A stretch of DNA of 64,000 nt from Candidatus Saccharimonadales bacterium (GTDB lineage Bacteria > Patescibacteriota > Saccharimonadia > Saccharimonadales > JAXHNE01): positions 16,850 to 80,849 of the forward strand of contig JBFIJL010000002.1 of assembly GCA_041600755.1 (NCBI GenBank), written 5' to 3'. The notes beneath the pieces were generated by a model, which was not told the DNA's origin, did not search any database, and was given only the letters and a program-made list of their open reading frames with translations. The translations under genes were made by a program, and so were the position numbers. Of the stretch, positions 6,880-51,687 are shown piece by piece; within the stretch, counting starts at the first letter, position 1, and the number at the start of each line of letters is the position of its first letter.

Positions 6880-7083
6880 ATGGCAAAAAAAGGCGGAAAA
6901 CGCAAAATTATCGGACTTGTAAGCGAAGCTACTGGGCATCGTCATTACTACACTGTCAAAAACACGATGAATACTCCTGACAAGATCGAACTTAAAAAGT
7001 ACGATCCAATTGTTAGAAAGCATGTACTATATGTTGAAACCAAGAAAAACCTTGGACGCAACGAAGTAAAGCCAAAGAAATAG
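6880..7083 (+). CDS. rpmG: 50S ribosomal protein L33
   Basis: [44 protein letters not shown] matches the L33 pattern. Confidence 0.9.
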
Positions 7084-7102
7084 TATTCACGTATTGATTA
7101 TT

Positions 7103-7130
7103 AAATAAGCCTCCAATGTGAGGCTTATTT
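7103..7130. terminator. Bidirectional hairpin between convergent rpmG and the 124-aa ORF
   Basis: AAATAAGCCTC/GAGGCTTATTT 11-bp stem with a 6-nt loop. A/T runs lie on both sides. Confidence 0.6.
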
Positions 7131-7499
7131 AATATGTCCAGGAACATATACGGGACTCATCGCTCCAAGTGCTAGAAGAATTTGCTTACCTATACGCCTG
7201 GTAAGTGATTCCCGAGGTTGCTGTAGTTGCGCATCTAACGTGCAAGACGAATCTCCCGTATCTTCATCTGATTCATAGCCATTACATATATTCCCACGCA
7301 TTCTTATGTGATCTGTGAGCATATTTGATCGTATTGTATGCTCCTCGTGGGTGCGAATTTCAACCACTGAAGCTGCAATGCGGGTTAGAGAAGGACAGCC
7401 TATGCAGTTACTTGCATCAAATTCAACCAAAACCATATTGCAGTTATCTGGATTATTGCCCCCGTACATTGGATTGTCTGTGTAGGTGCGTTCACTCAT
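7125..7499 (-). CDS. Hypothetical Cys-containing protein (124 aa)
   Basis: Internal ATG (MSERTYTDNPMYGG...) of track ORF 7125..7571. The longer form would overlap the GH15 3' end. It lies 17 nt downstream of GH15 on the same strand. Confidence 0.45.
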   Translation of the reverse strand: MSERTYTDNPMYGGNNPDNCNMVLVEFDASNCIGCPSLTRIAASVVEIRTHEEHTIRSNMLTDHIRMRGNICNGYESDEDTGDSSCTLDAQLQQPRESLTRRIGKQILLALGAMSPVYVPGHIK

Positions 7500-7516
7500 G
7501 CAATAGTTATAGCAAC

Positions 7517-9451
7517 TTATAGTCGTTTTGCGTAGTCTAGAAGAGTGTTTACTAGTTCCGCATGGCTCCATACGAGTGGAGCAACGCCCACCGGACGTCC
7601 GTCGTTAGGATTTACTTGCTCGGCTAATATTCCACTTGGTAGGGCGTGCTGGAGTGCCCAGTCAATAATTTCTTTTGCGATATCTTCCTGGCTAGCTTTA
7701 AGTGCTAGCTGGGCATACCAAAGCGAAGTCACAAACCATGGATTGCCTAAATATGGCGGGTCAGATTCAAAATAGCGGTCGTGTTCATATCGAGGCGATC
7801 CACCAATCGGTGAACTTTGGTATAGTACTTTCTTAGTTGATTCAAAAGAGGCTAATAGCTGGGGTTTCAAGTTCTTTTCATCTGCGAACATCCAGGCTCC
7901 AAACAAACTTGATACATCAATCGTGTTGTCAAAGCCTAACGAACCATCCGGCTGCAGTAAGATACCCTTCCTGAAGCTTTGTCTCTCCTCATTATATAGT
8001 GCTGTAAAGTTCATCCCAATCTTTTCAACGGCCAACAGCCAGTCTGCTGAATCGTTTTCTTTATGGAGCGATTCAGCAATTTCAGAGGCAGCTAGCAAGG
8101 CCTGATAAGTGATCGAGGTTGTATAGGTGCTTGTTAGGAACTTCTCTTCCCAAAGATCATAGCTAGCGTGCGGCAGGCCAGTTTCTTCATCGATAAATCT
8201 GGTCATGAAGTTAGCTGCTGGCTTCACAAGAGTTTCGTATAAAGAGCCGACGAACACTTTATCTCCAGACACACGCCCATATTCCGCAAGCATAAAAATA
8301 ACCACTGCGGTTTCGTCTTCTTGAATAGCCAACTCTTTGTGATGATTTTGAACTAGGGGATGCCAGGTGCTGCCAATCGATCCGTCAGGCTGGAATTTGT
8401 GCATAAGATAACCTTCTGGAGTGAGAACCTTTTCGCAAAATTTGAAAAATGCTTTGGCTTCTTCCTGATAGCCAAGTCGGATAAGCGGCCACAGTGACAA
8501 TGCTCCATCCCTTGGCCAAACATAGGTATAGTAGTCTCTTCCGTAGTTATAGATTGAGGAGTCACACGAAGCTATAAGGCCACCCCGTTTGTCCAGGTGT
8601 GACTTAATGACAAGCAAAGATTTTTTTAGCATTGATTGGTGAGCTGCGCTTAGCTTAGAAATACTAGGATCGGCTTTGCTAAGCCACTCATTCCAGTGTT
8701 CTTTTGAAGTTTGCAACAGGGATGCCAAGCCGTTTTTAAGGATTATATTGTGAGGATTCTCGGCCTTTACTTGTGTGGAATTCACAGAAATCCAATAATC
8801 AAAATTGTAAGTCTCGCCTTCATCTAGATTTCTTGCAAAACGCATTACAGAATCCACACCTCCATGCTCTACAAGACTTCCAGATAATTCTCCATCTTCG
8901 GCATCCCGAAATGTACCTTCTTTGCCTTCTATGCCGTAGTTTCCAACTGCAAATTGGTCAAAACGATCTCCGTATTGATCGACTCCTGAGATCACCAAAC
9001 AATCGTGACCCTTGTAGTCATATATATAATGCCCATTAGGTTCAAACAAAGCTGTATCTGCACGCCCATTTCTTGAAATTTCGAATACTTGATGCATGAA
9101 TATTCGAATATCACGCGCGCCAGGCAGAAGCGAAGTAACCGCAATTTTACGACCAAATACATCCGTAGAATAGTCTACAAAATCTTCAGTCTGAATATGA
9201 ATGCCTAGCTGGTGATGTGTCATAGAACTATGGGCTACGAGCGCATCGTCACGAAAGTCTACAGATGTATCCCAGCTGTCATCGATCCATGAAAATTCGC
9301 TATCAACCCAAACACCAATTTTGTGGTTGCTGCTTCTGGCATTCGTTAAATTTTCTTGGCCGACATAGGGGTAATAAAAATCATGCACAAGTCCATGCTC
9401 ATCAATACCGACTGTGAGTGATCCATTTCCAAGAACTGCGTGCCGAGCCAC
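7517..9451 (-). CDS. Glycoside hydrolase family 15 (glucoamylase/glucodextranase-like)
   Basis: 644 aa. YTYVWPRDGALSLWPL is a GH15 signature region, and the C-terminal half looks like an (alpha/alpha)6 barrel. Confidence 0.85.
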   Translation of the reverse strand: MARHAVLGNGSLTVGIDEHGLVHDFYYPYVGQENLTNARSSNHKIGVWVDSEFSWIDDSWDTSVDFRDDALVAHSSMTHHQLGIHIQTEDFVDYSTDVFGRKIAVTSLLPGARDIRIFMHQVFEISRNGRADTALFEPNGHYIYDYKGHDCLVISGVDQYGDRFDQFAVGNYGIEGKEGTFRDAEDGELSGSLVEHGGVDSVMRFARNLDEGETYNFDYWISVNSTQVKAENPHNIILKNGLASLLQTSKEHWNEWLSKADPSISKLSAAHQSMLKKSLLVIKSHLDKRGGLIASCDSSIYNYGRDYYTYVWPRDGALSLWPLIRLGYQEEAKAFFKFCEKVLTPEGYLMHKFQPDGSIGSTWHPLVQNHHKELAIQEDETAVVIFMLAEYGRVSGDKVFVGSLYETLVKPAANFMTRFIDEETGLPHASYDLWEEKFLTSTYTTSITYQALLAASEIAESLHKENDSADWLLAVEKIGMNFTALYNEERQSFRKGILLQPDGSLGFDNTIDVSSLFGAWMFADEKNLKPQLLASFESTKKVLYQSSPIGGSPRYEHDRYFESDPPYLGNPWFVTSLWYAQLALKASQEDIAKEIIDWALQHALPSGILAEQVNPNDGRPVGVAPLVWSHAELVNTLLDYAKRL

Positions 9452-10659
9452 TAGACGTCAAATCCTTTCTGGGTTAACCGAAACTTCAGGTCATGATAGG
9501 CATTCATAAATGTAATATGAGCCTGATAAGGAGTTTCATAGGGGCTGAAATAAGCATGAATATCACCGTCGCTAAACCACTTGGTGCACATATAGTAAAA
9601 ATGATCAGACGTCTGAAGTTTTCGCCAGTCCTCAATAAGCGCCAGATCTTCTGATTTGAGTATTGGGGTTTCAAGTTCATAAAGTGCCCGAATTGCTTCA
9701 TGTTGCATCGGGTTGCCAAGCCAAGCGCTTAGGTCGCGCTCTGTATCTGCCCAGGTTGTAGTGTAGGGCGTATCAACTTCATCTTTTACTTCATGGGTAT
9801 CTGCAGCCTCGCTTACAGTCATAAATTGATGTTCTGGATCTTGGAGCCAAGTTGCAGGTAGATGCCTTAGAAAGTCAAAGATACCGCTTTCTGACCATTG
9901 ATGCTCACCAAATGTTTCATAGTCCATAAACAAGTTGAATATTTCGGCATCTGGAGTTTCATTTAGCCAATGTGTGTACTTGTCGGCAGTTAGTGGCCAC
10001 TGCTCCCAGGCTTGATTGCCAAACCTAAAGGCGATGTCGTCGCTAAGTTTATAGTTTTTCATGAGCAGCTTTACGTTATGAGTGTGTGTTGGTTTATATA
10101 CATAATTTGGACTTCGCCAGCCAAGAATTGGATCCCACCCCTCGGCTAGGATTGCTTTGTACCCAGCCCGATCAGCCCATACAGCCAGGTCGTTGTTGTA
10201 GCTAAGCTCGGTATTGCGAAATGCTGTTGGAGTTTGCCCAAACAATTCTTCGATTTTTTCTTTATGCATACGAACCTGCATTTCAAATTCAAACTGAGAA
10301 TAGAAAAACGCAAGGCTATGATGGTATGTTTCGCCAACAAACTCAACGCGACCGGTGCGTGCCAAGTCTTGGAACGAGTGAAGTGATTTTGGAGACCAAG
10401 CCTGCATTTGTTCAAGAACCGTTCCAGTCATTGACAGGCTGATTTTGAATCCTGGGTGCTGATCGAGTAATTGTTTGAGGACTTTGTTAGTGGCTAAATA
10501 TGATTTCTCTGCAACTTTGTGCAGAATCTGCTCGTTTGAGCGTCGGTCGTCATACGGTGCATCAAAATAATCATGATGATTTCCGGCATCAAAAATAGTG
10601 TAGTCACGAACTCGATATGGCTGGTGCACGTGCATATAGAGGACTATCGAGCGCTTCAT
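9451..10659 (-). CDS. Glycoside hydrolase family 57 (alpha-amylase/glucanotransferase-like)
   Basis: N-terminal LYMHVHQPYRV and MDYETFGEHQW motifs are typical of GH57. It shares one base with the GH15 start. Confidence 0.85.
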   Translation of the reverse strand: MKRSIVLYMHVHQPYRVRDYTIFDAGNHHDYFDAPYDDRRSNEQILHKVAEKSYLATNKVLKQLLDQHPGFKISLSMTGTVLEQMQAWSPKSLHSFQDLARTGRVEFVGETYHHSLAFFYSQFEFEMQVRMHKEKIEELFGQTPTAFRNTELSYNNDLAVWADRAGYKAILAEGWDPILGWRSPNYVYKPTHTHNVKLLMKNYKLSDDIAFRFGNQAWEQWPLTADKYTHWLNETPDAEIFNLFMDYETFGEHQWSESGIFDFLRHLPATWLQDPEHQFMTVSEAADTHEVKDEVDTPYTTTWADTERDLSAWLGNPMQHEAIRALYELETPILKSEDLALIEDWRKLQTSDHFYYMCTKWFSDGDIHAYFSPYETPYQAHITFMNAYHDLKFRLTQKGFDV

Positions 10660-44011: not shown

Positions 44012-44039
44012 AAAAAGCAGTCCAATTGGACTGCTTTTT
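44012..44039 (+). terminator. Intrinsic terminator after tRNA-Gln
   Basis: AAAAAGCAGTCCA/TGGACTGCTTTTT perfect hairpin with a T5 run. Confidence 0.75.
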
Positions 44040-44212
44040 ATTTCTTCTACTCTGAGTACTTAATTTAGTCCCATACCACAAATATGTCATCGATATAGTC
44101 GGACAAAACACCTTAATTGAGTTAAGAAGCAGAAATTTAACCACAGCACTCACATAAGGTATCAAGCCGTTTATGGTTGCGTAGAGGTATATAATAGTAT
44201 GTAGGGGAGTTT

Positions 44213-44863
44213 ATGAGTGAAGGTTTAGCAGCCAAGATGGATGCTTTTTTCCCGGAATACCCTATACGCGAGTACCATCGTGGTCAAATACTAATATACG
44301 ATAAGGATATTGTTCAACAAATATTCTTTCTTTTTTCTGGCAAAGTCAGACAATACCGAATTGCCGACGAAGGAAACGAAGTAGTTGTTGAAACTTTTCA
44401 CGATAATTCTTTTTTCCCGAGCTTATCAAATTATTTTTCCAAAACACCTAGTGATTTTTTCTACGATGCCACCACTGATATTAGAATTAAAGCAGTTCCG
44501 ATGTCACGAGTGATCGAATTACTAAAAACTCAGCCAGAAACACTTATAGATCTTGTTATCCACGCCCAAGAAGCAATGGAAAATAGCCTAAAGCGCATGT
44601 CGCATGTCATGTCCAGTACTGCTTATTACAGACTAACCTACGAGTTACTGCTTGAGTGTGAACTTGCTTCTAGAGATAGAAGAGGGCAGTACCGGCTTTC
44701 GCTCCATGAATATGAATTAGCAAATCAAGCGGGTGTGTCTCGTGAGACTGCTAGTCGAGAACTCCAAAAGCTAAAACGCAAAGGCATGGTTGCGGTCAAC
44801 AAACAATACATTGTAGTGAAAGATGTAATCAGACTGAGAAAAGAATTGGGCGATCACCTCTGA
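44213..44863 (+). CDS. Crp/Fnr-family transcriptional regulator
   Basis: N-terminal cNMP-binding-like beta-roll and a C-terminal HTH (ELANQAGVSRETASRELQKLKRKGMV). Confidence 0.85.
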   Translation: MSEGLAAKMDAFFPEYPIREYHRGQILIYDKDIVQQIFFLFSGKVRQYRIADEGNEVVVETFHDNSFFPSLSNYFSKTPSDFFYDATTDIRIKAVPMSRVIELLKTQPETLIDLVIHAQEAMENSLKRMSHVMSSTAYYRLTYELLLECELASRDRRGQYRLSLHEYELANQAGVSRETASRELQKLKRKGMVAVNKQYIVVKDVIRLRKELGDHL

Positions 44864-44868
44864 ACTAG

Positions 44869-44884
44869 TGTGATGCAGATCACA
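44869..44884. promoter_or_regulatory. Perfect CRP-type palindrome TGTGA-N6-TCACA
   Basis: TGTGATGCAGATCACA begins 6 nt after the regulator's stop codon. It lies ~120 nt upstream of the next gene. Confidence 0.55.
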
Positions 44885-45000
44885 TACAAATACTGACGAG
44901 CATCAATGTTATGGATTGTTTCGATTGTTAAGCTGAACTAGGGTCGCGAGATGAGAGGTCAAGAAATATAAGCTTAAGACAGCGGCCTTGTGAGGTGATT

Positions 45001-45588
45001 ATGCAGTTACTGTATGAGCCACGTACAAGCAGTATTTATCAAATTTTCAAACAGATGCTACAGCATCGAAACAATATTGTAGTTGCATTTATAGCCTCAA
45101 TTTCGCTATTAATTTTTGCCGGAGCGGGAGCTTTATCGATCAACAGCCCCAAAGGTATGGAGCTCGATACAGGTCAAGACAACAATACTACGTCAAATAG
45201 TTCCAGTAGCAATAACTCAAGTGCAGAAATGGCCACCCCTGACGATAATCACGACTTTCAAACCAATGGAACAGATACCCACGAAGAAAATGAGCATAAC
45301 TTAAACGCGCAGCTGCACACTGACAGCTCCAATAGCACCCAGAACAACTCAAGTTCTAATAACGTAGATATTTCAATAAAATCTGATGCCACAGACAGCG
45401 GCCAATCTGCAGTAGTGCAAGTAAATGGTCAACAAGTTCCAAATATCGATAACGGGCGAACTCAACGCATCAAACTGAACGACGGGACCGACGTCAGACT
45501 GAAGGTGCGTGAAAGTTCAAGTGATAATAACTCAAACTCAGTCCAAATTTCCGTAAGTAATAATGCAAACGAGAAAGGAGGAGAATGA
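45001..45588 (+). CDS. Membrane-anchored Ser/Asn-rich protein
   Basis: TM segment IVVAFIASISLLIFAGAGALSI followed by low-complexity NNTTSNSSSSNNSS regions. GAGGTG RBS. Confidence 0.5.
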   Translation: MQLLYEPRTSSIYQIFKQMLQHRNNIVVAFIASISLLIFAGAGALSINSPKGMELDTGQDNNTTSNSSSSNNSSAEMATPDDNHDFQTNGTDTHEENEHNLNAQLHTDSSNSTQNNSSSNNVDISIKSDATDSGQSAVVQVNGQQVPNIDNGRTQRIKLNDGTDVRLKVRESSSDNNSNSVQISVSNNANEKGGE

Positions 45589-45716
45589 GTACATTTAAAT
45601 AAAGCACAATGGGCATCATCGTCCTGCCCGAGTGCGCCCACCCACTACCAGGCACACTTAGGCTGGGCGAGGGTCCGAGCTAACATTAAATCACGAAAGC
45701 TTAACAAGGAGATTTT

Positions 45717-46301
45717 ATGAATAAACTTCTTAAATCAACCGCTATTTCACTCACTAGTCTGGTTTTTTCCGTGGGATTAGTAGGAGCACATGCGGGTTCA
45801 ATCGATACCACTGGGCCGGATTCTGACAATTTAGTTAGAGTCACAAATACGGCCGATGTGGATCTCGACAACGACACTGATGTTGATGCCGATATCGATA
45901 TCGATCAGGATGCAAATAGTGGAAATGCAGACGTCAAGCACAACACTGATGCAGGCGATGCAGAAACTGGTGACGCTGAGAATGACAGCGACATCGATGC
46001 ATCAATAGACATCGACAATAGCGACTCATCTTCAGCTGCTTTAAGCGGCTTTGACTTCGGAGGAGGTGGTGAAGGTTCAATCGATAGGACTGGGCCCGAC
46101 TCAAACAATAGAGTCATCTTCCGTAACGACATGAAGGTCCGCGTAGACAATGACACGGACGTTGATTTTGATGTCGATGTCGACCAAGATGCAGATTCTG
46201 GAGATGCAGAAGTAAGCGGAAACACAATGGGCGGAAATGCTACTACCGGAAACGCTAGTAACACGAGCTCAACATCGTTTTCACTCACAGTGCGTAACTA
46301 G
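45717..46301 (+). CDS. Secreted repeat protein (two ~85-aa Asp/Asn/Gly-rich modules)
   Basis: Signal peptide MNKLLKSTAISLTSLVFSVGLVGAHA. Duplicated GSIDxTGPDSxN...DNDTDVD...DQDAxSGxAxVxxNTxxGxAxTGxA. Confidence 0.7.
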   Translation: MNKLLKSTAISLTSLVFSVGLVGAHAGSIDTTGPDSDNLVRVTNTADVDLDNDTDVDADIDIDQDANSGNADVKHNTDAGDAETGDAENDSDIDASIDIDNSDSSSAALSGFDFGGGGEGSIDRTGPDSNNRVIFRNDMKVRVDNDTDVDFDVDVDQDADSGDAEVSGNTMGGNATTGNASNTSSTSFSLTVRN

Positions 46302-46436
46302 ATAACTGAGGAGGATATGCTCTTTAGTTTGCGGAATCCTCGGTAGCGAGAGCTGCTCGGACTCACCCAGCGCCACCGAGGATCCGCATAGGCAAACTCC
46401 TCAAATTCCATACTATTTATTAAAGGGAGACCAACA

Positions 46437-48497
46437 ATGCGCAACGTAACACACCTACTCAGACTCAAAATACAGCCCTTGCTAGTTGCGCTGTTATTAA
46501 TTTTAGCTCCAACCAGCAATGCAATTATTCTGGCTCAGGAAGCTACTTCAGCTCCGGACAATACAACACAATCGGCTGAAGTCACTCCTCCGCCTAAATA
46601 TGTATATAATGCAGAAACTGGACTATGGGAGAACGGCACATACTCCTGGAACCCTGTTACCCATAAAACAACCCCACTACAGACCAAGACCTACAGCTAC
46701 AACACAGCAACTGGAACTTGGGATACAAACTCATGGGCATATGATGAACAGGCGGGTGCTTACGCAGAAAACAAACCTGCAGCCCCCGCACAAGACCCAA
46801 AGCCCCCAGTACAGAGCCAAGCTACTGATATCCCAACTCAATCTACTTCCAGCTCATCATCTGGAGATACAGGCGCCATTCAAACATCCGCACCAGGCTC
46901 TGACAATAAGACGGGTTCGGCCAATATAAGTGCACTCAATACGGGTCCCGGTTCTACGAATAATGCGCAAAACCAAAACGACCAATCTCAATATTTCAGT
47001 AACTTTTTCAACGCTTCAATCAGCGGCAACATAAATTCAAATTCCCAGAGTGGTGATGCTTCAATTCTTCACAACACGGTCGGGGGTGATGCGACAACAG
47101 GGGATGCATTATCAATGGCCACAATCCTTAATATGATTCAATCAGCGTGGGGATCTGGAGAACTTTCACCAAATCTTTACACCTCAACCATTCAGGGTGG
47201 GTACACAGGAGACCTAACTATCAACCCAGGGGACTTGGGCCTGACAAACTCTTCGAACAACCATCCGCAAACAGACCTGAAGGTTGTAAGTAGCCAGGAC
47301 GCATCTATAAAGAACGACGTAAACTTGGCTGCAACTAGCGGTAACGCTCTAGTGTCAAACAACACACAAGCCGGTGACGCCAGAACAGGGGATGCCGCTG
47401 CAGTGGCAAACATAATGAACTTTATTAACTCATCGATCAGTGCTAATAAATCGTTTATTGGCGTATTGAATGTCCTGGGGGACCTAGAGGGCGATGTATT
47501 ACTACCCGGCGACCTAACTAAACATTTACTTGCGGCAAATATTCCTACGGCCAATATCAACCTTAGCCCCTCGGCCTCCTTGGATATCACCAATGAAAAT
47601 GATTTCTCTATTAGCAATGAAATTAATACCACAGCGACCAGCGGAGATGCAGAGGTTAGCCACAACACGGTCGGGGGTAATGCGACAACAGGAAATGCAG
47701 AAACAAGCATAACTGTGTTCAACCTTGTTGGACAAAACATAGTCGCAGAAAATGCACTATTGGTTTTCGTAAACGTGATGGGAGACTGGGTTGGATTCAT
47801 AACCAACGCACCAGCTGGGTCGACATCAGCAATGTTAGGCTGTTGCGCAGGCACTTCGTCATCTGACGATCTACTTAACGGCGTAGACACGGAAATACTC
47901 TCGAAGAATAAATTTTCTATCGATAATAATATTAATCTATCCGCGGTGTCTGGCGATGCGACTGTTAGCGACAACACAGTCGGAGGATCTGCCGAAACTG
48001 GAGATGCGGCGGCAGCAGCAAATGTGCTAAATGTCATGAACTCGAGCCTATCGCTATCAACCTGGTTTGGCGCCCTTTTCATTAACATATTCGGAAACTG
48101 GAATGGAAGCTTTGGAACAGATACTGCATTCGGTGGCTATAGCACTAAACCGAACTCGAGTAATCCCGATCCAGCTAAGCCACCAACTACCGGAAATACA
48201 GTGACAACAAGCTCTGGAGAGACTATTCGATATATAGTAATTGCTTCGACCAGTAGCTCAGTAAGCGGCGGACAATCAAATACCCAAAATTCGCTGGAGC
48301 CTCAATCAATCCCAGAAGTTAACGCAGCAACTACTGAGACCGTCGCAAATTCCAATGCAGATGAACCGTTAAGTACAAACACAGAGACAGATTCAAGCGT
48401 ATTGTCTTACTGGGTTCTCCTCATTATCCTCACAATCACTGCAATTATGCTAATACGGTCAATACTAAAGGCAGACGACGAATCGATAACCGTCTAG
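46437..48497 (+). CDS. Large surface protein: signal peptide, Y-x-Y-N-x2-T-G-x-W repeats, four modules sharing the SGDAxVxxNTxGGxAxTGxA motif, C-terminal TM anchor
   Basis: 686 aa. The motif occurs four times (SGDASILHNTVGGDATTGDA, SGNALVSNNTQAGDARTGDA, SGDAEVSHNTVGGNATTGNA, SGDATVSDNTVGGSAETGDA). C-terminal anchor is VLSYWVLLIILTITAIMLI. Confidence 0.75.
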   Translation: MRNVTHLLRLKIQPLLVALLLILAPTSNAIILAQEATSAPDNTTQSAEVTPPPKYVYNAETGLWENGTYSWNPVTHKTTPLQTKTYSYNTATGTWDTNSWAYDEQAGAYAENKPAAPAQDPKPPVQSQATDIPTQSTSSSSSGDTGAIQTSAPGSDNKTGSANISALNTGPGSTNNAQNQNDQSQYFSNFFNASISGNINSNSQSGDASILHNTVGGDATTGDALSMATILNMIQSAWGSGELSPNLYTSTIQGGYTGDLTINPGDLGLTNSSNNHPQTDLKVVSSQDASIKNDVNLAATSGNALVSNNTQAGDARTGDAAAVANIMNFINSSISANKSFIGVLNVLGDLEGDVLLPGDLTKHLLAANIPTANINLSPSASLDITNENDFSISNEINTTATSGDAEVSHNTVGGNATTGNAETSITVFNLVGQNIVAENALLVFVNVMGDWVGFITNAPAGSTSAMLGCCAGTSSSDDLLNGVDTEILSKNKFSIDNNINLSAVSGDATVSDNTVGGSAETGDAAAAANVLNVMNSSLSLSTWFGALFINIFGNWNGSFGTDTAFGGYSTKPNSSNPDPAKPPTTGNTVTTSSGETIRYIVIASTSSSVSGGQSNTQNSLEPQSIPEVNAATTETVANSNADEPLSTNTETDSSVLSYWVLLIILTITAIMLIRSILKADDESITV

Positions 48498-50161: not shown

Positions 50162-50680
50162 TTAATTATGTGCAGTGTGAGTTACTTCGATAGAGTCGCT
50201 GATGACAACTCCGTCAATTGCATATTCGCTGTGGTCATTAGCGTTTAAAATCACCTTAAAAGTTTTGGTTCCATCAAATGGCTCAGAATAGTGAAACGTA
50301 GACCCGTAAAGTCTTGCAACTTTCTTGCCGTCTACATACAGGTGAGCATGGCCCTCATTGGCAATATTTTCATCGTTTACGTTCTCTGGAGTAAAAGTGA
50401 AGTTTTCGGTGGTTAAAGTTACGTTCCACCCCGAGACCGCGTCTTCTTCAGCTGCCACAGTTACACTTGGCGCATTGGCAGCTTCAACTTCATACATTCC
50501 GTGACTCATTTCACTGTGATCATCACTCTCCGGCATTGTCTCATCATCACTGTGCTCGTGTTGTATCGTGTCCTGTGTCGCTACAGCATCGTCTTCCTCG
50601 CCATAGTTTGCAATTACATAACCACCAGAAACACCAATAACCAATGAAAGAACCACAGAGACTACGAATTTTACTGACAT
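50162..50680 (-). CDS. Membrane-anchored extracytoplasmic protein with a His/Asp/Met-rich linker (putative metal binding)
   Basis: N-terminal TM segment, HEHSDDETMPESDDHSEMSHGMYE linker, and a beta-rich C-terminal domain containing EGHAHLYVDG. AAGGAG RBS. Confidence 0.5.
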   Translation of the reverse strand: MSVKFVVSVVLSLVIGVSGGYVIANYGEEDDAVATQDTIQHEHSDDETMPESDDHSEMSHGMYEVEAANAPSVTVAAEEDAVSGWNVTLTTENFTFTPENVNDENIANEGHAHLYVDGKKVARLYGSTFHYSEPFDGTKTFKVILNANDHSEYAIDGVVISDSIEVTHTAHN

Positions 50681-50736
50681 GAATCACTCCTTATTTAGTT
50701 CGATATATCTAACCATGAACACTATGACACAATCAA

Positions 50737-51687
50737 GTGATGTATTTGGTATACTTGAACCAAATGACAAAAGACAAAAATATTTCAGCGGAGCAATCTG
50801 TTGGCACGTCGGTTTTAGTGAGTATTGGCGATATCGTGATCAATCTTGGGCTTGCACTGCTATCCGGAAGTGCCGTCATGCTGTCACAGGCTCTTCAGGG
50901 GACTGCAGACTTACTTTCTGCAACACTACTGCTTGTTGGTGTCAAAAAGTCGAGCAGACAAGCCGACGATACACATCCTTTTGGATTTGGCCGAGAGATA
51001 TTTTTTTGGGCTTTGCTTGCTAGCATCTTCACTCTTGTTGCGACTGGTATTTTTGTAGTCACCAAGGGCGTTGGTCAAGTAGTTGCTCAAAATAAACTAG
51101 ACTACGCAAATTACGCAATTATAGTACTGGCTTTTGGACTGCTCAGTAACGGATATTCTATGCGGATTAGCCTCAAGCGAATCGGTAGCGGATTGAGTTC
51201 AGCAAGTATCAAAGATGTCATAAACCGAGTTATCCACTCATCGTTAATTGAAACTAAGACAACTTTGCTTATCGACACCATGGGCTCAGTGTCTGCCGCT
51301 ATTGGGCTACTGTCGCTGGCAATGTACCAAGTTACTGGAGCGGCAATCTTTGATGGTATTGGTGCGATAGCGGTTGGCCTAATCACTATGGCTGGGGCAC
51401 TGCTACTCATTTACAATCTCAAGAATTTACTCGTAGGCGTGAGTCCTCGCCCAGAAGTCATAAATCAGATAAGGGATATTGCAAGCAACATCAAGCACGT
51501 CAACGATGTTCTAGACTTACGCGCCATTACCATCGGATCAGGCAAAATTCTTGTTATCTTAGAAATACATTTCGAGGATAAACTAACTACTGATGAGATC
51601 GAAAAAATAACCGACGAAATTAAAGATGCGTTGAAATCACAAATGAATATAATACACCGCGTTCAAGTCGAGGCCGAGACCCCGTAA
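50737..51687 (+). CDS. Cation diffusion facilitator (CDF) family transporter
   Basis: Six TM segments with SQALQGTADLLS and HPFGFGRE motifs, plus a C-terminal cytoplasmic domain. The start is uncertain (GTG 50737, ATG 50740 or ATG 50764). Confidence 0.85.
   Translation: MMYLVYLNQMTKDKNISAEQSVGTSVLVSIGDIVINLGLALLSGSAVMLSQALQGTADLLSATLLLVGVKKSSRQADDTHPFGFGREIFFWALLASIFTLVATGIFVVTKGVGQVVAQNKLDYANYAIIVLAFGLLSNGYSMRISLKRIGSGLSSASIKDVINRVIHSSLIETKTTLLIDTMGSVSAAIGLLSLAMYQVTGAAIFDGIGAIAVGLITMAGALLLIYNLKNLLVGVSPRPEVINQIRDIASNIKHVNDVLDLRAITIGSGKILVILEIHFEDKLTTDEIEKITDEIKDALKSQMNIIHRVQVEAETP

Follow-up and report, generated by a model that had tools for sequence, protein, structure and literature searches.

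Between a gene of the Crp/Fnr family and three putative envelope-protein genes (g1, g2 and g3) of a Candidatus Saccharimonadales bacterium lies a perfect palindrome of the type bound by CRP of Escherichia coli, and the question raised by this locus is whether the palindrome serves the adjacent regulator as an operator or has another origin. The stretch analysed, called here the window, comprises 64,000 nucleotides (nt) of contig JBFIJL010000002.1 (assembly GCA_041600755.1), and it was compared with related loci, which are designated by L numbers. Judging from this comparison, the palindrome, hereafter site 1, is likely to be such an operator, through which the regulator controls g1-g3.

Site 1 (TGTGATGCAGATCACA, centred at 44876.5) is a 16-base-pair (bp) palindrome in which both halves of TGTGA-N6-TCACA, the consensus operator of E. 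coli CRP, are perfect, and given its arms TGTGAT and ATCACA around a 4-nt centre, GCAG, it also fits perfectly the extended CRP core TGTGAT-N4-ATCACA. Its first base is found 6 nt past the last base of the regulator's stop codon (TGA, 44861-44863) and 116 nt separate it from the start codon of g1 (ATG, 45001), the regulator and the operon lying on the same strand with a gap of 137 nt (44864-45000). Inverted GTGA/TCAC half-sites with a 6-bp spacing are thus present in non-coding DNA, as in a CRP-type operator. These observations agree with the preliminary description of this DNA, which had placed a palindrome with two perfect half-sites 6 nt after the regulator's stop, at 44869-44884, and about 120 nt ahead of the first envelope-protein gene; its statement that the window holds no second perfect copy was upheld as well by a scan of the 64 kb. 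The number of copies as such carries no weight. Indeed, shuffled windows hold 0.16 perfect copies on average and 14 of 100 of them hold at least one, so that a lone copy in 64 kb is not significant. Furthermore, when up to two mismatches to TGTGA-N6-TCACA are allowed, the window holds 21 matches where 35.7 would be expected, which is no enrichment, and copies of the 8-base core with one mismatch are not enriched either; neither set shows a preference for intergenic DNA. What sets site 1 above chance is its placement and its conservation.

The protein encoded immediately upstream has the two domains of the Crp/Fnr family. Its N-terminal part (residues 19-106) matches the cyclic-nucleotide-binding barrel PF00027 (E=6e-10, 39.4 bits for a cut-off of 27.5) and its C-terminal part (residues 145-210) the Crp-type helix-turn-helix (HTH) domain PF13545 (HTH_Crp_2, E=5e-13), with PF00325 also scoring 22.0 bits for a cut-off of 21. 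Among solved structures NtcA is the best match (8e-13), followed by a cyclic-nucleotide-binding protein, Rv3676-type CRPs, Vfr and E. coli CRP (~4e-5). Given that the protein scores far under the cut-off of every NCBIfam equivalog model (44.8 bits against 266 for CRP, NF008732; 49.3 against 245 for NtcA; 33.8 against 228 for FNR), it is a member of the family and the orthologue of no named regulator. Its relatives are assigned to Candidatus Saccharibacteria or Saccharimonadales: eight homologues came from a word-indexed search of 5.8 billion proteins, and 13 sequences were aligned after locus-derived ones had been added. When genomes and metagenomes were scanned with a profile of the regulator, most of the matches were remote actinobacterial homologues of Crp (25-31% identity), and the metagenomes gave only five loci.

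The part of the regulator that would contact DNA is of the CRP type. In a profile alignment with E. coli CRP (98% probability), the segment SRETASRELQKL pairs with SRETVGRILKML of CRP, which places R177, E178 and R182 at the positions of R180, E181 and R185, the residues with which E. coli CRP reads the GTGA half-site. This Arg-Glu-x-x-x-Arg recognition helix is shared by all 13 aligned regulators in the form R-E-T-A-S/N-R, with R177, E178, T179, A180 and R182 invariant. The contacts that CRP makes with cyclic adenosine monophosphate (cAMP) through E72, R82 and S83 are not conserved in the regulator, which has L/S, S and D there (FIGELG of CRP against FFPsLS; QERSAWVRA against TPSDFFYDA). Both marks of CRP proper, the cAMP contacts and an equivalog-level score, are absent from the regulator. 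Since the contact residues are replaced, cAMP is an unlikely ligand and probably not the effector, and a binding assay with and without cyclic nucleotides may use the wrong ligand. Elsewhere in the protein, at the hinge that joins the dimerisation helix to the HTH, 12 of 13 homologues keep a Glu-Cys pair (E148-C149, 44654-44659); C149 is the only conserved cysteine of the regulator and a candidate redox-sensitive residue.

The intergenic region was then aligned with that of six further loci which show the same tandem order of regulator, g1, g2 and g3 or its beginning (L003, L004, L005, L006, L007 and L048); overall, 11 operon loci were compared, for more than 120 genomes that contain g2. A (G/T)TGA-N6-TCA(C/A) box stands at the equivalent place in all six relatives, exact in three, with one mismatch in two and as a half-site in one (see the table), so that site 1 is conserved in orthologous regions as a CRP-type operator should be. 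The 6-bp centres of the boxes and their flanks vary freely. The invariant columns of the seven-locus alignment are the TG and TCA of the half-sites, a G found 22-23 nt further on (preceded by T in six of seven), TCAATG, and a T, a T and an A of a promoter-like element, block C. Moreover, the spacing is fixed across the seven loci: [A/C]TCAATG comes 17-18 nt after the box and the GTTAA/GTTGA block (GTTAAG, GTTAAC, GTTGAC or GTTTAAA) another 17-19 nt later, block C reading TTGACT in L048.

The alignment also reveals a second, degenerate box (site 2), whose centre lies 22-23 bp downstream of the first across the tandem loci. In the window it has the form CTGA-N6-TCAA, and its right half falls in the invariant block ATCAATG (44902-44908); its equivalents are GGTGACTGCCATCAAT in L006, GGTGAGCAGACTCAAT in L007 and ATGC-N6-TCAA in L003, L004 and L048. 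TCAA is the complement of TTGA, the half-site of FNR type. The L047 regulator is preceded by a tandem pair with the identical 23-bp spacing (CGTGATACCGCTCACA and TGTGAGCGTGGTCATA), and the 23-bp tandem emerges once more as the enriched pattern TCAC-N9-GTGA in the enumeration of inverted repeats described below.

The box accompanies the regulator and the operon through three gene arrangements. Besides the boxes that follow the regulator in the tandem loci, there is an exact one 63.5 nt ahead of the regulator start in L005, and L044-46 carry AGTGACAATAATCACA 30.5 nt upstream of the start of a 29%-identical homologue, the L044, L045 and L046 stretches being identical over the region upstream of the regulator. 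In L051 (ATTGATTCAGATCACA) and L052 (TGTGATATTTATCATTGATGCAGATCACG) the boxes stand between a divergent regulator and the operon and are hybrids of FNR and CRP type; the core of the L052 box differs by one base from that of the window, and CATTGAT, the reverse complement of the site 2 block, forms the left half of the box in both loci. Two sets of loci served as controls. Regulators with no operon behind them (L001, L043, L044-46, L047) show no box after their stop codon, hence the element belongs to the control region of the operon and not to the 3' end of the regulator gene. Where the operon is not directly preceded by a regulator gene (L049/L050, L053, L054), no Crp-type box is present, and near-consensus promoters stand before g1 (TTGACA-17-CACTAT at 4217-4245 of L049, TTGTCA-17-TATAAA at 3234-3262 of L053 and TTGACA-17-CATCAT at 5211-5239 of L054). 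This comparison suggests a swap between an activator-dependent and a constitutive promoter.

In 145 kb of non-redundant related loci, the exact core GTGA-N6-TCAC occurs nine times, eight of them in intergenic DNA (the coding exception is at 50501 of the window). Seven of the nine are confined to the non-coding flanks of the regulator genes, 3.8 kb in all, where 0.05 would be expected (binomial P ~2e-13, for loci that are homologous and flanking intervals set by the analyst), the remaining two being spread over 141 kb. Furthermore, in an unbiased enumeration of 4-mer inverted repeats with gaps of 0-10 nt, GTGA-N6-TCAC ranks first (seven of 13 loci), followed by its register shifts TGAT-N4-ATCA and TGAC-N4-GTCA. 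The proposal of the preliminary description that the adjacent regulator binds here and controls the downstream locus is supported by conservation, co-occurrence and the CRP-type helix, all of them comparative.

We next consider how such a site would act. No canonical sigma-70 promoter was found in 44864-45000, which fits activator dependence of g1; sigma-70-like promoters of this bacterium can be recognised upstream of tRNA genes (for example TTGTTA-17-TACAAT and TTGCCT-18-TATAAT). Block C is most likely a weak -35 element (TTAAGC for TTGACA), since its three invariant bases (T, T, A) coincide with the key positions of TTGACA, and alternatively a -10 element (TAAGCT). With block C as -35, the centres of sites 2 and 1 would fall near -63.5 and -86.5, respectively, both ahead of the polymerase, as in class I or class III promoters; with block C as -10, site 2 would be near -41.5 and site 1 near -64.5, which is class II-like. 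Class I CRP sites are found near -61.5 (or -71.5, -82.5, -92.5) and class II sites near -41.5. Two other placements were considered and rejected: the TCAATG block as -35 with block C as -10, given a spacer of 19-20 nt, and the TCAATG block as an extended -10, given that the hexamers that follow it are not conserved.

In the mechanism that we propose, a dimer of the regulator would read both GTGA/TCAC half-sites of site 1 through its CRP-type helix (R177, E178, R182), site 1 being the high-affinity operator, and a second dimer would probably occupy the weaker site 2 (CTGA-N6-TCAA), 23 bp downstream. Block C would mark a weak promoter, located at the two boxes or downstream of them, and the regulator would most likely activate g1-g2-g3 (45001-48497) much as CRP or FNR does at promoters of class I or class III. 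Binding itself, a positive and not a negative effect on transcription, and the place of the sites with respect to the transcription start are all inferred. If the regulator binds, activation seems to us to stand a little above an even chance; it is favoured because the boxes sit at positions from which Crp/Fnr proteins activate, and not over the -10 element or the start, and because the operons that lack the regulator have a strong -35 element. The regulator also appears to act locally and not globally, since no other good site is present in the 64 kb.

Several points weigh against this interpretation. The operator of the Crp/Fnr regulator is a prediction, and the common ancestry of the loci makes the enrichment statistic overstate their independence, although the surrounding DNA is otherwise unalignable. 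L048 retains just half of site 1. Within these 64 kb a wider regulon is not visible, relaxed copies of the motif showing no enrichment. The core promoter is not confidently placed, and neither reading of block C matches the canonical CRP positions exactly. Finally, the contrast in promoter strength is small and drawn from few loci, with best scores of 7-9 out of 12 for regulator-linked operons against 9-10 out of 12 for regulator-less ones.

The first of the other explanations keeps the binding and reverses its effect: the regulator would bind the box as a repressor and, whether as a roadblock or at an operator, curb the read-through or the promoter activity that reaches g1-g3, the operon being off while the regulator is active. 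The arrangement in the window is compatible with it, the regulator and the operon being co-directional and 137 nt apart with no convincing terminator or canonical promoter between them, so that read-through is possible, and the box of L044-46, some 30 nt from the start codon of the regulator, has a position typical of autorepression. However, a roadblock cannot apply in L051/L052, where the regulator is divergent, and in L003/L004 a terminator-like hairpin with a T-run stands ahead of the conserved TCAATG block and block C, implying a separate downstream promoter. Moreover, the boxes of the tandem loci are found upstream of the conserved promoter-like block and not over it, and a near-consensus -35 that is present in regulator-less operons and missing from regulator-linked ones is the pattern expected for activator dependence. 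We therefore regard repression as unlikely, but as a serious alternative to activation.

According to a second explanation, the palindrome would act mainly as an RNA hairpin, be it a weak intrinsic terminator, an attenuator or a 3'-end stabiliser of the regulator mRNA, and not as a protein site. Indeed, it begins 6 nt past the stop codon and can form a stem of seven pairs (-7.7 kcal/mol). In L003 and L004 the palindromes are followed by 7-8 T, pass the terminator scan and fold better than shuffled sequence (z of -4.8 and -3.2), so that conservation in these two loci could be partly structural, a further point against the operator interpretation. In the window, however, no T-run follows, as the preliminary description had noted, the palindrome is not returned by the terminator scan, and 31 of 200 shuffled sequences fold at least as well (z=-1.08). 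A stable G+C-rich hairpin with a T-run, the hallmark of an intrinsic terminator, is hence found in L003 and L004 and not in the window. Furthermore, L005, L007 and L048 have no equivalent hairpin and yet keep the half-site sequence and the spacing, which indicates that the conserved feature is the sequence and geometry of a protein site and not an RNA stem; what is kept is GTGA/TCAC itself and not a stem that pairs. The same box is also present upstream of regulators and in divergent intergenic regions, where the regulator transcript cannot end, and regulators without the operon carry no hairpin after their stop. The weak terminator that the preliminary description offered as an alternative fails for the window, while in L003/L004 the palindrome could have a second role in ending the regulator transcript; as the main function of the palindrome, a hairpin is highly improbable. 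That the palindrome is a functionless chance occurrence, as could be argued from the 14% of shuffled windows holding a perfect copy and from the lack of enrichment of relaxed matches, is effectively refuted by its conserved position across diverged loci, its fixed spacing to the other blocks, the strong enrichment of exact cores beside regulator genes and the first rank of the motif in the unbiased enumeration. Site 1 as an operator of the regulator is thus the explanation retained here, and the features of the locus are collected below.

Features of the locus in the window, and sequences of the box in the seven tandem loci (mismatches as counted in the alignment)
Feature	Position	Strand	Sequence	Basis or remark
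Crp/Fnr-family transcription regulator, 216 residues, Saccharibacteria-specific clade	44213..44863	+		Pfam PF00027 + PF13545
Box, window (site 1)	44869..44884		TGTGATGCAGATCACA	0 mismatches
Site 2, degenerate box	44893..44906	.	CTGAcgagcaTCAA	centre 44899.5, 23 bp downstream of site 1
Block C, promoter-like element	44927..44934	+	GTTAAGCT	columns T69, T70, A72 invariant in 7 loci
Ribosome-binding site of g1	44992..44997	+	GAGGTG	precedes ATG 45001
g1, membrane-anchored Ser/Asn/Asp-rich protein	45001..45588	+		open reading frame; N-terminal hydrophobic segment by inspection
g2, secreted protein of 194 residues, signal peptide, 2 module copies	45717..46301	+		read from translation
g3, 686 residues, signal peptide, 4 module copies, C-terminal hydrophobic anchor	46437..48497	+		read from translation
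Box, L003			AGTGACGTAGGTCACT	0 mismatches
Box, L004			AGTGACTCGTGTCACT	0 mismatches
Box, L006			AGTGACAATAGTCACA	0 mismatches
Box, L005			AGTGTCACAAATCACA	1 mismatch
Box, L007			TGTGATACTCATCAAG	1 mismatch
Box, L048			aTTGCcattcaTCACa	right half (TCACA) only

The proteins of the target operon can reasonably be described, from their translations, as surface or envelope proteins. g2 and g3 are related to each other and have in common a module of about 20 residues, SG[DN]A.V..NT.[GA]G.A.[TS]G.A, while a g1-type gene occupies the equivalent position in L003, L004, L006, L048, L049 and L051-L054. Identity with the positional counterparts is 52-57% for g2 (second gene in L003, L004 and L006) and 44-45% for g3 (third gene in L003 and L004). 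Of g2, 125 homologues were found, and every one whose source is named belongs to Saccharibacteria/Saccharimonadales or Parcubacteria. No relative of g1-g3 was found in Pfam, NCBIfam or PDB sequences, and no tandem DNA repeats were found in the operon. An AlphaFold2 model of g2, built with 60 homologues, is all-beta and of low confidence (predicted local distance difference test score, pLDDT, of 53.8). It is plausible that proteins of this type are components of the cell surface that episymbionts show to their hosts.

Other observations concern the regulator gene and its surroundings. A perfect TATAAT (44190-44195) lies 17 nt before the regulator ATG with no recognisable -35 element, which implies a very short leader on the regulator mRNA, and no Crp-type box with up to one mismatch was found upstream of the window's own regulator. 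Directly 3' of tRNA-Gln, A and T runs flank a strong hairpin (aaaaagcagtccaattggactgcttttt, 44014-44040) that is probably a bidirectional terminator insulating the regulator locus from upstream transcription. Apart from tRNA-Gln itself and sub-threshold Rfam noise (at 44014-44040), no known RNA family was found in the intergenic region.

In the divergent arrangement the regulator stands beside the cytochrome oxidase genes COX1, COX3 and COX4_pro (1-3238 of L051; 1-2196 of L052), a neighbourhood that hints at a link of the regulator to oxygen or redox. A conserved small basic open reading frame of 56 residues (MGRVLDKINVRYFQEKDGYAEQVHLNEHWQTRARKLKNRKWRELNRKILNDQHVAF; 4134-4304 of L051, ~3070-3240 of L052) is also found there between the regulator and g1, preceded by a conserved hairpin-like stretch (gaaactac...gtagttgcgagaatc); no counterpart was noticed in the window. 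Among the regulator-less operons, L053 carries directly past g3 (6974-9640) a CHASE-domain histidine kinase, a response regulator and a convergent Crp-family gene, and these may make up another module for regulating this operon.

Two more boxes stand away from the operon. An exact one (AGTGACCAAGATCACT, 1883-1896 of L045) is intergenic, about 35 nt upstream of a 139-residue open reading frame on the minus strand and 2 kb from the regulator of that genome, which has an upstream box of its own; this frame may be a further member of the regulon. The other has one mismatch (ACTGACATGAATCACT, 50674-50687), is at the 5' end of an unknown 172-residue gene on the minus strand (50162-50680) and faces a divergent CDF cation-efflux gene (50737-51687). 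This box could be a second target, if a weak one, but boxes with one mismatch are not enriched overall.

A more ambitious account can be proposed tentatively, and we hold it to be rather doubtful as a whole. In this account a Crp/Fnr clade specific to Saccharibacteria would have lost the cAMP contacts and would sense another signal, and through tandem CRP/FNR-hybrid boxes 23 bp apart it would serve as a dedicated on-switch of a surface operon widespread in the phylum, while lineages without the regulator would have switched to a constitutive TTGACA promoter. Redox or oxygen is a candidate for the signal because of the near-invariant hinge cysteine and the cytochrome-oxidase neighbours in L051/L052. 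Should g1-g3 also make up the layer on the surface of these episymbionts or a structure in contact with the host, the circuit would be the first one defined for surface remodelling in Patescibacteria.

Saccharibacteria and other Patescibacteria possess few regulators in their very small genomes. Gene regulation in Saccharibacteria (TM7) is almost unstudied; in the literature on Saccharibacteria/Patescibacteria we found no transcription-factor-operator pair described, nor this regulator, its site or the g1-g3 proteins. The locus therefore offers something concrete and testable, namely a regulator, an operator with a weaker neighbour and a target operon. It also gives a handle on a widespread surface-protein operon, g2-type proteins being present in more than 100 Saccharibacteria-type genomes, and the activator boxes with an adjacent regulator, set against consensus promoters without one, amount to a small natural experiment in promoter rewiring.

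Compared with known systems, the actinobacterial relatives are the nearest genomic ones outside Saccharibacteria. Rv3676 of Mycobacterium and GlxR of Corynebacterium use TGTGA-N6-TCACA, bind cAMP and act globally. The operator type is the same here and Rv3676-type structures (3d0s, 3i54) match the regulator with E ~1e-6; in contrast, identity is just 25-31%, and neither cAMP binding nor global action is supported for the regulator. NtcA of cyanobacteria gives the best-scoring solved structure and NCBIfam model, with a full-length alignment, but the score is far below the cut-off, as reported above, and NtcA has Val (TRVTVTR) where the regulator (SRETASR) and CRP have Glu. The NtcA box is GTA-N8-TAC, and Glu in place of Val fits a G and not an A as third base of the half-site (GTG...CAC).

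FNR belongs to the same family and its box is TTGAT-N4-ATCAA; halves of this type (TTGAT/ATCAA) are found in site 2 of all tandem loci and in the boxes of L051/L052. Furthermore, the recognition helix of the regulator has Ser (RETASR) at the position of S212 of FNR (ETISR). The regulator differs from FNR by lacking the N-terminal cysteine cluster for an iron-sulphur centre and by a primary site of GTGA and not TTGA type. From E. coli CRP it differs by its low similarity (the equivalog score given above), by its replaced cAMP contacts and by an action that is apparently local. It shares with CRP the two-domain architecture, the R-E-x-x-x-R recognition helix, the perfect extended-core operator and the location of this operator upstream of a promoter without consensus elements, and the second site 23 bp downstream recalls the tandem sites of class III promoters. 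In kind, site 1 would be a textbook Crp/Fnr operator, and the switch an ordinary one.

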